In this document: positions 3,079-8,219 of the stretch, piece by piece | Layout of the letters: every line of letters begins with the position of its first letter | Position numbering within the stretch: position 1 is the stretch's first letter | Assembly: GCA_965204535.1 (NCBI GenBank) | Contig: CBDBEV010000001.1 | Span: forward strand, 1,920,001 to 1,984,000 | DNA length: 64,000 bases | Direction: 5' to 3' | Source of the DNA: a bacterium | GTDB taxonomy: Bacteria > UBA8248 | The notes under the pieces: model-generated | Told to the model about the DNA's origin: nothing | The model's input: the letters and a program-made list of their open reading frames with translations, nothing else | Database searches by the model: none | Translations under genes and position numbers: made by a program

Positions 3079-3638
3079 GCGGCTGTTGAAAAATCCTTGT
3101 CGGGAAGAATTCCTCCTTCTTCAGTTGGAATTCACCCCCCCAACCCCATGTCAGCGGGGCTTTTTGCTTTTACCCCCCTGTCAAGGGGGGGTAGGGGGGG
3201 TTGCCTTTCATGCAGGGGGCCTTTGAAGCTCCCTCATCGGTCGCGTCAAACCCTCGATACAGCCCTTGTGGACCTGTTCGGAATGAAGAAGTTTTTCGTT
3301 CTCCTCACCCTGAGTAGCCGCCGGAGGCAGCGTATCGAAGGGCAATCGCGCCCAATGCGGAAGCGATGCGTCGCACGCCGGTAGAGGTTTTTTGACCCTC
3401 TCTCTTCGGTCGGGTCAAATCTTCGATACAAACGCTCTTTCATCAGTCGCGTTTGACCAGCGCGCCTACTCGGGATGAGGTTTTGTAGCCGTCTGTGTGG
3501 TAGAAAGGAGAACCGCCTCGTAATCCGCCATACCATCCGCTCGCCCTCGACTCGAAAACCAACCCCCCCTACCCCCCCCTTAACAGGGGGGTAAAAAAAG
3601 AAGGCCCCCCTGACAAGGGGGGCTTTTTCAACAACCTC
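3079..3638. mobile_element. MITE-like non-coding element carrying G/C-run palindromes
   Basis: 18-bp imperfect terminal inverted repeats (GCGGCTGTTGAAAAATCC vs GAGGTTGTTGAAAAAGCC on the other strand, 15/18), flanked by TGAA at 3075-3078 and 3639-3642; inverted copies of the CCCCCCTACCCCCCCTT(G/A)(T/A)CAGGGGGG motif inside. Confidence 0.6.
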
Positions 3639-3728
3639 TGAAGCACGGCGCGCATCCCCTCCGCATGGCGTTTTGGGCGCACGAAAGATTAAGCCCTTGA
3701 TGGATGGGATACGACGCCCCCTTCGCGC

Positions 3729-4181
3729 CTACCCGGGTCTCCTTGCGAAGAACTCGCGGTACTTGGGCGCCAGCGGCGCGTCGCGCCAGTCGAAGCCGGT
3801 GGCGTCGGCGGCCCCCTCCATCTCCCGCGCGCTCCAGTCGTTCTCATCCGCCAGATGGTTCAGCGAGCAAATCCCGGCCCGCCCCGTGGCCTTTCAGTGC
3901 ACGAACGCAGGGCCGTGGGCCTTGGCTTCTGAGAGCGCGCGGCTCACCTCGGCCAGCGAGGCGGGGCTGAACTCGGCCGGCGAGACGGGGACGTTCACGT
4001 AGCGCATCCCCAGCGCCTCGGCCTCTGCCTTGGCGCGCTCGGGCGGCAATTCGCCCTGGTCTTCTTCGGGAAAGCGCGTGTTGATGATGGTCTTGACGCC
4101 TCTTGCGGCGAGGGATTCCAGATCCGCGGGCTCGGGCTGCGAGCCGAAGGCGATGTCTTCAGATGCGTGGAAGTATTCCAT
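3729..4181 (-). CDS. Putative selenoprotein, Blh/TIGR01244-like rhodanese/phosphatase-fold sulfurtransferase (150 aa, U96)
   Basis: The ORF track stops at TGA 3894-3896 after ...PAFVH. Reading through gives H-U-K-A-T-G-R (the family HCxxxxR active loop) and 54 more codons to TAG at 3729-3731; N-terminal QP..DL..LAARGVKTIINTR..EE motif. Confidence 0.85.
3862..3883 (-). promoter_or_regulatory. Candidate bacterial SECIS hairpin for U96
   Basis: mRNA GGCGGGC-CGGGAUUU-GCUCGCU, a 7-bp stem (two G-U pairs) with a G-rich loop, starting 10 nt after the UGA. Confidence 0.55.
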
Positions 4182-4203
4182 GTAAAAACTCCAGGTATGG
4201 GGG

Positions 4204-4764
4204 TTAATCCGCCGTCACGCCCTCTATCTTGAAGGGCTCGCCGTTCACCTCCACGGTGGAGTGGAGCGGCACCGGCTCGGTGATGAGGGCCTCGGCGAAA
4301 CAGCCGTTCTTCGCGTTCTTGATGAGGTGCGCGAGCTTCTCCGCAGGCTCGTCCGATTCGACTTTGAGATGCGTGTCCACGGCCTCCCACTTGTTGAACA
4401 CGGTGCCCTTGAGCACCGAGCCGCCCAGCAGCTTTCGGAACCGCACCGAGACGCTCGCTCCCTTGATCTCCATTTTCATCATGTGCGCGTACCGCGACAC
4501 CTGGGTGAGCAGTCAGAACCCCGTCGCCATGGCGAGATAGGCCATCGGCGTGGGGTATTGCGCCGTGCCGCCGATGTTCGCGCCCTCGTCGCAGAAAATC
4601 TCGAACTTGCCCGCCGTGCCGCGCTTGAGCTGCAGGGAGCCTTCGTGCATCTCGGTGTGGACGGTGTTGTCGGTATACAGCCCCCCTTTGGGGAGTTCGG
4701 GCTTGTCGATGACGCGCTCGCCCGGCACGGTGGAGGTGCTGTGTCCATCTACAGGACCTGTCAT
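4204..4764 (-). CDS. Putative selenoprotein, OsmC/Ohr-like peroxiredoxin (186 aa, U84, C155)
   Basis: Track ORFs 4513-4764 and 4204-4500 are in the same frame, joined by TGA 4513-4515 and LLTQ: ...DEG..IGG..YPTPMAYLAMATGF-U-LLTQVSRYA...AKNGCFAE; the U-to-C spacing resembles the OsmC Cys pair. Confidence 0.9.
4483..4500 (-). promoter_or_regulatory. Candidate bacterial SECIS hairpin for U84
   Basis: mRNA GUG-U(bulge)-CGCG-GUA-CGCG-CAC begins 12 nt after the UGA; a bulged U and a G/U-containing apical loop, as in the E. coli fdhF-type SECIS. Confidence 0.7.
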
Positions 4765-4982
4765 GGATTTCTCCTCATGAATATGTGGTTCGCATGATTT
4801 CGTCGATGCGCGCAGGATACGACAAACGCTTCGCCAAGTATAGTTTCCGGAGAGTGGAACCGGCGGGCTTGATTGAGGAATTCCGGCGAGCCTGCTAAAC
4901 AGGTGGTCACCAAATCTATGAATGGCCAGTGCGGCGAAGGGAGCGCGTTCCGCCGCCGCGCCCGGCCGGGAGGAATGCGGAT

Positions 4983-5381
4983 ATGTTCAACAAATTTCAT
5001 CACATCGGCGTCGCGGTGAAGGACATGGACGCCGCCATCGCCCTGTACGAGGGCATGGGCGCGAAGCTGCTCGCGCGGGAGACCTCCGCCGACGGCGCGA
5101 CCGATCTGGCCATGCTGGATTTGGGCGGCGACCTCATCGAGCCCATCTCGCCCATCCAGCAGGATTCGCCTCTCGCCAAGTTTATCGAGGAGCGCGGCGA
5201 GGGCCTCCACCACGTGGCCTTCGACGTGAAGAACATCGACGGCGTGCTGGCCGACATGAAGGCGCAGGGCTTCGAGTTGATTGATGAGAAATCGAGGCCC
5301 GGCTTCGGCGGACACCTCATCGCCTTCATCAAGCCCAAGAGCACGATGGGCACGCTGTGGGAGCTGGTGGAGGACGTTTAA
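4983..5381 (+). CDS. VOC family protein, methylmalonyl-CoA epimerase-like
   Basis: HHIGVAV, IEPISP, KFIEERGEGLHHVAFDV, AFIKPKSTMGTLWELVE. Confidence 0.85.
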   Translation: MFNKFHHIGVAVKDMDAAIALYEGMGAKLLARETSADGATDLAMLDLGGDLIEPISPIQQDSPLAKFIEERGEGLHHVAFDVKNIDGVLADMKAQGFELIDEKSRPGFGGHLIAFIKPKSTMGTLWELVEDV

Positions 5382-5385
5382 GTCC

Positions 5386-5500
5386 GTAGGGGCGATCCCC
5401 CGTGGTCGCCCATTCGTCCATTCAAGGACAGGCACGGGGGCCTGTCCCTACGCCTCGTTTCAAGCGCGGGTTTCCGTAGGGGCGCTTCGCGAAGCGCCCG
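5386..5500. repeat. Cluster of GTAG-type REP-like palindromes
   Basis: GTAGGGGCGATCCCCCGTGGTCGCCC, GGACAGGCACGGGGGCCTGTCCCTAC and GTAGGGGCGCTTCGCGAAGCGCCC between convergent genes. Confidence 0.8.
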
Positions 5501-5581
5501 CACCCTTCGGTATGGTCCGTTCCCGAGCGGCGGGGCGGCCCCGAGGAGGGGCTGCCGTAAGGTTCAGGAAAAATTATTTCC

Positions 5582-6343
5582 TCAGTCGCCCCGTACGAGG
5601 CCTTCTCTCACTTTCGGCATCGTTTGCGCGATGTCCCGTATGGGCAGGCCGTGCGTCGGCGCGACGACTTCGACGTCCAGTTCATCCATCAACTCTTCGA
5701 GCTTGTCGGCGTAGACGTTCATGTCGGTGAAGGTCGTCCAGTACAGGGCGCGTTCGGCGAAAACGCCCAGCACGTCGACCAGATCGAGCGAGGTGGCCTC
5801 TTCGGCGAACATCCCGCAGTGGCCGTCCGTATGGTAGTGGCTGTAGGCGAAGCCGTCTCCCGGAAACAGCACGCGCCCTTTGGTCTCGAACCCCCAGAGA
5901 GAACTCCGCAAGTCCCGGATCACCGGCTCCACGGCCATGAACTTCGTATCGCCCAGGTCGATGGCGTCTCCCACGCGCATCTCCCGGAAGCGGCCCTCGT
6001 GCTGGGGAAACGCCAGGTGGTAGTCGCACATGTCCCCGTGGATGGTGAGGTCGGGGTATCGGTCGAGCACGCGGCCCAGACCGCCCGAGTGGGGGGTCTC
6101 CTGATGGGTCAGGAACAGGTGTTCGAGCGGGCCTCCGCCGCGGGCCAGGATGTCCCTCATCTGGCGCTCGATGATGGGGAAATCCTTGGGGTGTCCCGTC
6201 TCTATCAGCATGGAGGCTTCTGAGCCGATGATGAGGAAGGCCGCGTTGTAGGAGTGATAGATCTTGCCCTGGGAGTGTTGGACCAGGCAGTCGCCGAGCC
6301 AGAAGACGCCGGGCGATATTTCGCGGGGCAGGGGATGGCTCAT
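5582..6343 (-). CDS. MBL-fold (FprA/ODP-like) protein
   Basis: YNAAFLI..LIETG, THQETPH (variant of HxExDH), LFPGDGF, APTHG. Confidence 0.8.
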   Translation of the reverse strand: MSHPLPREISPGVFWLGDCLVQHSQGKIYHSYNAAFLIIGSEASMLIETGHPKDFPIIERQMRDILARGGGPLEHLFLTHQETPHSGGLGRVLDRYPDLTIHGDMCDYHLAFPQHEGRFREMRVGDAIDLGDTKFMAVEPVIRDLRSSLWGFETKGRVLFPGDGFAYSHYHTDGHCGMFAEEATSLDLVDVLGVFAERALYWTTFTDMNVYADKLEELMDELDVEVVAPTHGLPIRDIAQTMPKVREGLVRGD

Positions 6344-6351
6344 GTGTGCTC

Positions 6352-7215
6352 CTATCTTTCGAGGCCCAGCGCGACGTATTGGGGTTTGACGACGCCCCGG
6401 TCGAGACCCGCCAAAACCTCATCCAGCACGGCGAATTGTTGCTCGACCAGACGGCGCCCGCGCAGGATGGCGCCGTATCCCGGAGCGATGGTCTCGATGT
6501 CGTAGCGCTCGAAGACTTCGGTGATGCCTTTTCGGATGGAGTCCGTCCTCGCGCCCTCGAGCCACCAGTAGCGCGTGTTCAGCAGGAACGAGCGGACGAA
6601 AGCGGTCGTCGTCACCTCGTCTTCATCCAGCAGCCAGGGGCCTTCCGCCCCCTCCGCCCAGAGGTGGCTGAACATGTCCGAGGTGAACAGGATACGCGTG
6701 GCCGCATCGTAAATCCAGCGGGTGCTGATGAGGCGGATCGGCGCGTTCATCACCTCGATGTATCTATCGCCGATTTCAAGGGGATGGAGCGGCTTCAGTA
6801 TCGTGGTGGGCAGGATGGGGTTGCCGTTGTTCGCTTCGTTCGGCTCGATCGCTTCGAACTCGAGCCACTCGTTGATTTCCGGCACGGGGGCGAGGCACTC
6901 CACCACGTTGAAGCGCTTGGCGACCGCCATGGCGTTTCCCACCGACATGAATTCGTTGATGCGCAGCGGGAGCAGGTGCAGCGGCGTATCGGGCTCGATG
7001 AGGGATTCCAGCTGCGCCAGAATCTCGGCTTCGTGGGCGGCGTAGCCCGTGTCGAGCAGGAGCGCGCCCGCGTCTTCTTTCAGGAGAAAGCAGTTCGATA
7101 CGCTGTGCCCGCGCGCGCTGATGGGGTATGCGCTGATGCGCCCGTCCAGCGGGAACGTGTTGTGGAGGGCGTAGACCTTTCCCTCCGCGAGTTCGGCAAT
7201 CCCGGAATACGACAT
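6352..7215 (-). CDS. MBL-fold (FprA/ODP-like) protein lacking the His metal motif
   Basis: NCFLL..LLLDTG, WIYD..TRILFTSDMF, IAPGYG; the HxExDH region is replaced by LRINEF. Confidence 0.7.
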   Translation of the reverse strand: MSYSGIAELAEGKVYALHNTFPLDGRISAYPISARGHSVSNCFLLKEDAGALLLDTGYAAHEAEILAQLESLIEPDTPLHLLPLRINEFMSVGNAMAVAKRFNVVECLAPVPEINEWLEFEAIEPNEANNGNPILPTTILKPLHPLEIGDRYIEVMNAPIRLISTRWIYDAATRILFTSDMFSHLWAEGAEGPWLLDEDEVTTTAFVRSFLLNTRYWWLEGARTDSIRKGITEVFERYDIETIAPGYGAILRGRRLVEQQFAVLDEVLAGLDRGVVKPQYVALGLER

Positions 7216-7405
7216 GCGTACGGCGGCCTTTCCTTGTCGGCGACGAACAGAAGACTTGCGCCGAGGGAATTTGCGACCAGATGACTAAAAATCCATTGTA
7301 ACCCCATTCCGCGTGAATTGGCGATGCCCGCAGCATTTCTCTTTAGAATCGATTCTGACCTAGAGGGGAAGAGACATTACAATCTCTTGTAGAGCACTCA
7401 ACAAC

Positions 7406-7853
7406 CACTCCCCCCTTGAGGGGGTCGGGCTTTCCCCTCGGGAAGCCCGACAGAGGCCGAGTCCTTTGGACGAAGGCCGATGTGGTGGGGGGACATGCCA
7501 CAGAAAAAGCTCCCCCCACCGACTCGTTTGCGGGCTTCGCCCTTACCTCGTCGACTCCCCCTCAAGGGGGGAGTGAAGCGTGACTTCCACCGAACTCCCC
7601 AACCCCCTTCTCAGGGGATAAAGGCAACCCCCCCTACCCCCCCTTGTCAGGGGGGTATGAAAAGGCGACGCCCGCCGCCGGGAGAGGGGCTTTTGTTTTT
7701 TCTTGCCCCCTGACATGGGGGTCTTTCTTTTTTTGCCCCCCTGACAAGGGGGGGTAGGGGGGGGTGGTTTTCGAGTCGAGGGAGGGCCGGCGGGGAGAGA
7801 GCGATTTCTCGGCTTGGGAGTTTGCTCGTCATTCCGGTGGATGCCGGAATGAC
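7406..7853. repeat. Composite intergenic palindromic repeat cluster
   Basis: CACTCCCCCCTTGAGGGGG...CCCCCTCAAGGGGGGAGTG inverted pair; CCCCCCTACCCCCCCTTGTCAGGGGGG with its inverse; CGTCATTCCGG...CCGGAATGACG; blocks shared with 3079-3638 and 13899-14408. Confidence 0.8.
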
Positions 7854-7939
7854 GGTGTTATCGACTTGGCGCGTTATTTCCCCTTGAGCGTCGTCTTCTC
7901 AAACAGGATTCCCCTAACGCCATGTTATATGGATGGTTA

Positions 7940-8198
7940 TCCGCCGCGTGGTTCGCCGTCACCAAAATGGCGGCGCCTCCGCTTCCCAAAGGCCGGGGGA
8001 CGGGGTAGGATTTATGGAAGAGCCTGCGATGGATTCGGCCGGTTGGGTCTCGTGCGGCGGGAGCCCGCGAACCCCGTCAGGTCCGGAAGGAAGCAGCGGT
8101 AAGTGGACACTCCCGGGCGCCACGAGGGCGCCTGACCGGTCGACTCCATCGCAGGGTCTGCGCGCCGCTCACGGGGTATGGGGCCCTTCAACGGCGGA
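7940..8198 (+). ncRNA. ffs: Signal recognition particle RNA, probably the large (Alu-domain) type
   Basis: Helix-8 motif CCGTCAGGTCCGGAAGGAAGCAGCGG (8074-8099); CCTGCGATGGA (8023-8033) pairs with TCCATCGCAGG (8145-8155); ends TCCGCCG/CGGCGGA pair; lies directly upstream of dnaX. The outer ends are approximate. Confidence 0.9.
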
Positions 8199-8219
8199 AA
8201 TCCTTGGGATGGATTCTTG

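Follow-up and report, generated by a model that had tools for sequence, protein, structure and literature searches.

Two consecutive minus-strand genes of a bacterial contig, each interrupted by a single in-frame TGA, raise a pair of questions: whether these codons are read as selenocysteine (Sec, U) and, if so, whether the two proteins belong together in function. The initial annotation had proposed a co-transcribed Sec-peroxiredoxin and Sec-sulfurtransferase that form a redox or S/Se-relay pair. We followed up the locus in its window, the whole 64,000-nucleotide stretch of DNA to which all plain positions below refer, which comes from a genome of 4.56 Mb (two contigs, 95.7% complete). Its layout was found as described, with two genes, here termed gene A and gene B, lying 22 nt apart on the minus strand and bearing one TGA each (Table 1); with TGA read as U, neither contains any other stop. 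Standard annotation had been expected to break the pair into three fragments, and gene calling with table 11 indeed yields pieces of 83, 98, and 95 aa. A pattern scan of the spacer between the genes (4182-4203) found no terminator-like site, and a sigma-70 promoter scan of 3400-5100 returned no sites. The terminator-like hairpin past gene B is not taken as locus-specific, since many unrelated RNA-library contigs land on the repeat element that contains it. Such G/C-run hairpin elements recur intergenically in the window (at about 3100-3650, 5400-5500, 7350-7850, and 11050-11600), as seen in the sequence and from many cross-mapping contigs, and are likely small mobile repeats.

Table 1. Features of the two-gene locus and the tRNA-Sec gene, in positions of the 64,000-nt window.
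Feature	Positions	Strand	Basis
Gene A: OsmC-related selenoprotein, 186 aa, U84 (UxxT) and C155	4204..4764	-	NF041052, PF02566, Ohr/OsmC fold
Gene B: phosphatase-fold protein of DUF442/PF04273, 150 aa, with the loop H-U96-K-A-T-G-R101	3729..4181	-	
Gene A in-frame TGA, predicted Sec84	4513..4515	-	Conserved TGA; aligned Cys in structures
Gene B in-frame TGA, predicted Sec96	3894..3896	-	Conserved TGA; Cys in homologues
Gene A predicted SECIS hairpin, CGCG stem, GUA loop	4483..4500	-	Fold and codon conservation
Gene B predicted SECIS hairpin, 7-bp stem, 8-nt loop CGGGAUUU	3862..3883	-	Pairing kept across rows
Shine-Dalgarno-like GAGGAG upstream of gene A	4771..4776	-	Sequence
22-nt A-B spacer, with GGAG at 4193-4190, 7 nt before the gene B ATG	4182..4203	-	Sequence
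Terminator-like hairpin past gene B, within a repeated G/C-run element	3604..3623	-	Pattern scan
tRNA-Sec (selC), tRNA-SeC(TCA), 21 kb off, unlinked to the locus	25499..25595	+	ARAGORN

As to the first question, we regard it as practically certain that both genes are recoded for Sec. The TGA is kept at the same codon in 54/54 distinct genes related to gene B and in 32/32 related to gene A, counts that were taken among the matches listed (30 per genome search, plus 48 loci from a species collection) and that do not represent independent events, since the genes are kin, with identities that nevertheless span down to 42%. Each TGA had been placed at a catalytic Cys position, and the homologues bear this out: Cys occupies the Sec96 column in 155 of 169 homologous domains aligned from match lists, as well as in the close relative P0034 discussed below, and it stands at the gene A position in the structures 3CJE, 2ONF, 2OPL, and 1VLA, with U84 aligning with the first Cys of the OsmC-like structures 3CJE and 2ONF. 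The sequence past the TGA is likewise conserved, its protein identity matching that of the upstream part (0.57 after versus 0.57 before the TGA for gene B, 0.80 versus 0.75 for gene A), and the aligned codons beyond it contain no stop in either gene among the matches listed. The genome also holds selA, selB, and selD (573, 389, and 332 bits, respectively, all above cut-off, with selA adjoining selB), together with the tRNA-Sec gene, on whose position ARAGORN agrees with the earlier call; selD of this genome itself bears one TGA. That the two TGAs are instead true stops or nonsense mutations has next to no probability: database gene calls do terminate there (55 of the 64 database matches to gene B are exactly 95 aa long, and the two inspected end just before the TGA) and single-sequence folds are unremarkable, but termination would remove the catalytic residue along with 54 (gene B) or 102 (gene A) conserved residues, no codon other than TGA occurs there in either paralogous line, down to that same 42% identity, and Cys relatives exist.

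The hairpins that had been reported 10-12 nt downstream of each TGA are also present, starting 12 nt (gene A) and 10 nt (gene B) after it. In the bacterial SECIS model the loop comprises 3-9 nt, carries G at loop position 1 or 2, and lies 16-37 nt past the UGA (PMC13188914), and the MFE is at most -7.5 kcal/mol. The loops of genes A and B (GUA and CGGGAUUU, respectively) begin 20 and 17 nt past the TGA with G at position 1 or 2, and the MFE values are -11.7 and -17.2 kcal/mol, so that both hairpins agree with the model in spacing, loop size, loop G, and energy. Single-sequence folding was rejected as proof of a SECIS element, the z-scores not being significant (+0.43 and +0.90 for gene A, -0.49 and +0.61 for gene B), and a loose hairpin of the same kind stands behind 9,328 of the 130,129 TGA trinucleotides of the genome (7.2%). 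What raises the two hairpins above chance is their conservation, expressed as suppression of synonymous change, and not fold energy alone: over codons U+4 to U+10 the synonymous difference, that is, the fraction of codon pairs for the same residue that are not identical, is 0.077 in gene B and 0.110 in gene A, against gene-wide values of 0.405 and 0.389, and it lies below all non-overlapping control windows (16/16 and 22/22). Within the gene A hairpin, codons U+7 and U+8 are CGG and TAC in 32/32 matches listed, and one two-sided stem change occurs, in the paralogue at C2:2519724. The gene B hairpin is paired in 133/133 cells over 19 distinct rows, with one G-U/A-U exchange and no two-sided stem change among these rows; covariation in this stem was set aside as evidence, the shuffle control being uninformative with six of the seven pairs never varying. 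Four codons of gene B (GCC, GGG, TGC, and TCG) are fixed in 54/54 matches listed, and in the same 54 genes Arg101 is encoded by CGG 35 times, by CGA 19 times, and never by CGC, the commonest Arg codon elsewhere in B genes (154/441), a restriction that we attribute to the hairpin stem, which requires a G-U or A-U pair.

The identity of gene A is known. With 168.2 bits against NF041052, the model for OsmC-related (seleno)proteins (cut-off 95), and 49 bits against PF02566, it belongs to an already catalogued selenoprotein family; an OsmC-like UxxT protein was present in the Sargasso Sea survey (PMC1088965), the OsmC-like UxxT family is entered in Table 1 of the 2026 catalogue (PMC13188914), and gene A is the same as the NF041052 family in passing the cut-off and in its U-L-L-T motif, with no difference found. 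Its predicted structure has the Ohr/OsmC fold (a monomer model, in which the loop 60-69 is poorly modelled), and U84 and C155 are invariant in the 11 aligned sequences, as are R17 and R91, which may include the catalytic Arg expected next to the peroxidatic residue. The designation Sec-peroxiredoxin held up in part only: the fold and the second Cys, C155, speak for it, but gene A has no match to the OsmC/Ohr subfamily models TIGR03561 and TIGR03562 at E 0.01, and its position 74, as placed by residue count, is Met or Leu in 11/11 where Ohr has the catalytic Glu (in Xylella Ohr, Glu51, ten residues before the peroxidatic Cys61; PMC5962072). Ohr and Prx are distinct families, some members of which have no known activity (PMC5962072), and a literature search on Ohr subfamilies found no relevant paper. 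Because gene A is without the catalytic Glu of Ohr/OsmC, the name peroxiredoxin is unproven for it; it is likely a selenol/thiol oxidoreductase, in which Sec84 would be oxidized and then resolved by Cys155. The genome contains further paralogues of gene A, two of them close, with the same TGA and hairpin, and two distant.

Gene B scores 48.3 bits against PF04273 (cut-off 26.1) and 48.9 bits against the sulfur-transferase model TIGR01244, below the cut-off of 85.85, and we therefore file it under PF04273 (DUF442) only, while it may still act like TIGR01244 enzymes; it has no match to PF00581, and none of the seleno-specific NCBIfam models matches it. Its structural model (pLDDT 94) finds its best folds, at TM 0.72-0.75, in 2F46 (TM 0.75) and 3GXH, the structures of NMA1982 and of a Shewanella DUF442 protein. 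These two share the Cx4R loop; they are Cys enzymes, however, at 19-20% identity to gene B. Over the solved DUF442 structures the identity is 17-20%, and a PDB sequence search with gene B gave only two weak matches (E 0.08-0.09). Across the 169 aligned homologous domains the loop is Cx4R in 139 and Cx5R in 12, and in the U96-x4-R101 loop of gene B the Arg is invariant; the gene B alignment has no invariant Asp in the loop after the third strand, the general-acid site. Gene B therefore stands outside the classical Cys phosphatases, its loop being x4 and not Cx5R and the invariant Asp being absent.

The search for UGA-bearing DUF442 genes extended over 51 genomes of this phylum and one motif scan of the species collection. 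Matches to gene B were found in 33 of the 61 genomes searched, including 31/36 of its family, and a profile search placed it in 35/41 family genomes and in 0/9 other genomes of the phylum. The only full-length close relative in the protein sets is P0034 (162 aa), which is 53% identical; its Sec position is taken by Cys, and Cys105 is retained. In the tree it nests, on a long branch, among the Sec genes, a placement that is weakly supported (91/69), and it is possibly a Sec-to-Cys reversal. A second Sec-DUF442 copy lies at G000:C1:709102-709545 (+), 45% identical to gene B and with the same hairpin bearing an A-U pair; its relatives stand at the ilvD site described below, close to squalene/phytoene-synthase and flavin-oxidoreductase genes. 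Among genes of this second type, that at G010:C5:285646-286089 has two TGAs and a partial match at G009:C10:131444-131716 has a TAA, and both are perhaps decaying. The 2026 catalogue of 119 families (PMC13188914, Table 1) contains no PF04273, TIGR01244, or phosphatase-fold entry, and a literature search that included the deep-Sep main text and four supplements, with subscription papers, bioRxiv supplements, and RefSeq annotations outside its scope, found no DUF442 or phosphatase-fold selenoprotein. Beside the known selenoprotein A, the Sec form of DUF442 is thus apparently uncatalogued, a difference between the two genes that the initial annotation had missed. The nearest counterparts in the catalogue are Sec rhodanese forms 1-5 (PMC13188914), in which, as in gene B, Sec is the predicted sulfur acceptor of a six-residue loop; those proteins belong, however, to PF00581 or to NF041203/NF045694, whereas gene B has the phosphatase (DSP/PTP) fold.

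By analogy with its Cys relatives, gene B is probably a sulfane-sulfur transferase, a reading drawn from the fusion of such relatives to rhodanese and metallo-beta-lactamase domains. Ranking 4th and 7th among the matches to the gene B profile in 1.84 billion representatives are P0069, with two rhodanese domains and a DUF442 domain, and P0072, with a metallo-beta-lactamase, two rhodanese domains, and a DUF442 domain, and in P0136 a DUF442 domain is joined to a metallo-beta-lactamase; a rhodanese or lactamase partner occurs in only 3 of the 27 homologues scanned, most of which were chosen for length. Sulfur transfer by DUF442 domains has been measured in three systems, namely, from thiosulfate to cyanide or GSH by the Blh domain of Xylella (PMC5823870), by the SQR-fused domain of Cupriavidus, which needs Cys94 (PMC9163753), and as sulfur exchange with TusA and DsrE3C by Rhd442 of Hyphomicrobium (PMC11094781). 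Gene B shares with these proteins the Pfam family, the fold class, and the six-residue C/U-x4-R loop, and with Rhd442 also the stand-alone state, but differs in having Sec for Cys, the loop U-K-A-T-G-R in place of C-R-x-G-x-R, a TIGR01244 score below the cut-off, the extra Cys105, and no recognized neighbour of the sqr, pdo, or shdr kind; among nine neighbour-family representatives and eight window proteins, neither a sulfide:quinone oxidoreductase nor a persulfide dioxygenase was recognized. With TIGR01244 below its cut-off and 17-20% identity, the activity is assigned to gene B across a long distance. As a mechanism, Arg101 would hold the selenolate of Sec96 within the U-x4-R loop and bind the anion, the selenolate would take sulfane sulfur from thiosulfate, polysulfide, or persulfide, and the resulting enzyme Se-S intermediate would donate it to sulfite or a thiol in the manner of Cys-DUF442 domains. 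Of the earlier designation Sec-sulfurtransferase, the class therefore stands as the best reading, given PF04273 and the rhodanese-fused relatives, while the TIGR01244 cut-off is not reached and the function is inferred.

The extra Cys105 raises a different possibility, which we consider unlikely: that gene B uses its phosphatase fold for thiol/selenol oxidoreduction, with Sec96 resolved by Cys105, and reduces peroxide or an oxyanion. Cys105 is encoded by TGC in all 54 Sec genes listed and has an equivalent in only 2/139 Cx4R Cys homologues, one of them P0034; the homologue P0132 is fused to an AhpC/TSA domain, and catalogued selenoproteins are mostly redox enzymes (PMC13188914). The G and C of this TGC codon are, however, bases of the hairpin stem (3' arm), residue 105 is hydrophobic (L, F, M, V) in 109/139 homologues, and the model places it within helix 100-114. 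The RNA stem alone can explain Cys105, since it fixes NGC and Cys is the hydrophobic one of the four NGC residues. Still less probable is a role like that of NMA1982, with gene B as a short-P-loop phosphatase that depends on Sec. Its appeal lies in the best fold match, to 2F46, and in the need of NMA1982 for C95 and R100 of its Cx4R loop in DiFMUP hydrolysis (PMC10716126); that activity is very slow, however (kcat 4.4e-5 per s; PMC10716126), gene B has no invariant Asp past its third strand, and none of the 119 catalogued selenoprotein families is a phosphatase.

The second question, whether genes A and B are partners, is a matter of their genomic linkage. That they share one transcript is likely. 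Beyond this, a dedicated relay, in which gene B would load S/Se on Sec96 and pass it to, or be reset by, Sec84/Cys155 of gene A, would find encouragement in the 22-nt gap with a ribosome site of its own for gene B, and in the recurrence of the same order with a gap below 30 nt in 16 of the genus's 22 other genomes (in four more the gap measures about 76-700 nt, and in G017 the interval is interrupted by a contig end). A 2,115-nt contig of the sponge metatranscriptome X1, about 95% alike, covers 3735-4798, ending in adapter 34 nt before the gene A ATG, and the spacer is likewise spanned by RNA contigs of X2 and X3; an RNA contig is not a transcript, however, and such contigs show neither strand nor single molecules. 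Other observations weigh against a relay. In G015 the two genes stand about 6.8 kb apart, with an ABC-transporter cluster in between, and in G009 the spacer is 700 nt. Adjacent Sec-gene pairs would be expected 0.33 times in the genome, assuming 4,200 genes and at least 38 Sec genes, and A-B is the only one seen, which corresponds to a chance of about 28%.

The wider distribution of gene B points in the same direction. Among 48 gene B loci of the species collection, 20 have gene A upstream, all in one genus as judged by sequence, one resembles that of G015, and the other 27 are flanked by a transglutaminase-like gene and ilvD. This last group comprises the genus's second copy as well as every copy from other genera, and has no OsmC gene in the flanks examined (5 kb on both sides for 16). 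Two of these ilvD-site genes, L085 and L114, are the closest B sequences of other genera and group with the OsmC-linked copies (100/97), inside the A-linked clade of a midpoint-rooted tree, for which reason the linkage to gene A looks derived. The B family would ancestrally have lain between the transglutaminase-like gene and ilvD, and within the genus one copy would have come to lie behind gene A. Adjacent same-strand Sec genes are likewise found in the grdA-grdB, prdB-prdC, SAO, Tso, and Prx-SelW operons (PMC13188914), which recur across lineages or share a pathway, whereas the A-B pair was found in a single genus. The functional S/Se-relay pair that had been proposed is thus poorly supported, its linkage being broken in some members of the genus and absent at the ilvD locus, nor is the gene pair conserved beyond close kin; we judge a dedicated relay improbable. 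Instead, we lean towards the reading that genes A and B are each recoded for Sec, A being a known OsmC-like protein and B a likely sulfane-sulfur transferase, and that they are likely co-transcribed and not dedicated partners.

The neighbouring genes were rejected as pathway partners, for a divergent methylmalonyl-CoA epimerase and two ODP-like metallo-beta-lactamases accompany the pair only within the genus. The latter two are tandem genes of metallo-beta-lactamase fold at 5582-6343 and 6352-7215 (minus strand), the first of which recurs in 18/20 A-linked loci; we do not take them for persulfide dioxygenases because their best matches are weak ODP/flavorubredoxin models. In the RNA libraries the divergent gene is uncovered and the stretch 5400-25300 is covered in patches, neither of which was counted as evidence; cover is very deep, with many loose ends, at 8065-8103, just before dnaX, where, from the usual place of such genes, we presume a conserved small RNA such as SRP RNA.

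The genome that harbours the locus has no fewer than 38 selenoprotein genes. Of the 243 candidates from a codon-model scan, 58 (the top 40 plus 20 chosen by eye, less A and B) were sent to Pfam and NCBIfam; in 34 the TGA fell inside the domain of a known selenoprotein family, 20 had no match, three were true stops, and one was a CoA-transferase. The total is reached by adding gene A, gene B, its second copy, and SelD to these 34, and it is a lower bound, given that neither SelD nor the second DUF442 copy was picked up by the scan. The set comprises 13 AhpD/CMD-like, five OsmC-like, three deiodinase-like, three DsbA-like, and three UGSC proteins, two each of rhodanese, PrdB-like, and DUF442 proteins, and GrdA, GrdB, Trx, SelW-like, DUF3179, and SelD. 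So high a Sec demand invites the suggestion that gene B is a selenium carrier feeding SelD, whose in vivo Se donor has been called unresolved (review PMC13188914); neither B copy is close to selD or selAB, however, and no direct sign of selenium specificity is apparent, which makes this very unlikely. The CoA-transferase subunit (PF01144; G000:C2:146781-147605, plus strand) has an in-frame TGA at residue 102 (E-H-A-U) with a hairpin behind it; one TGA is present in 23 matches from 22/41 genomes, the same TGA codon was found in five other loci checked, and the paralogue at C2:682880 has TGC (Cys). A Sec CoA-transferase is absent from the 119-family table (PMC13188914), the literature search found no report of one, and it is a candidate second uncatalogued selenoprotein family. 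Records that hold close relatives of the locus are labelled Nitrospinota, Nitrospinaceae, or Ca. Tectomicrobia, the RNA sets that best match it are sponge metagenomes, and our literature search found no paper on selenoproteins of Nitrospin-type sponge symbionts. The boldest statement of the case, namely, that gene B is the first natural tyrosine-phosphatase-fold enzyme with a Sec nucleophile, acting with gene A in an all-selenium Se-S relay that handles sulfane sulfur in a sponge-associated lineage whose selenoproteome is among the richest known, is in our view improbable as a whole.

The A-B operon itself matters less, gene A being known and the pairing local. It is gene B that extends the listed bacterial selenoproteins by a family and a fold, the DSP/PTP-like DUF442, and its Sec reading corrects a gene call that is shortened across databases. 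In the literature, DUF442 proteins figure as sulfur transferases and also as a slow phosphatase; with gene B and P0034 as a natural Sec/Cys pair, it can be asked which of these chemistries benefits from selenium. Beyond the family, the locus points to an overlooked and very selenium-rich marine lineage.
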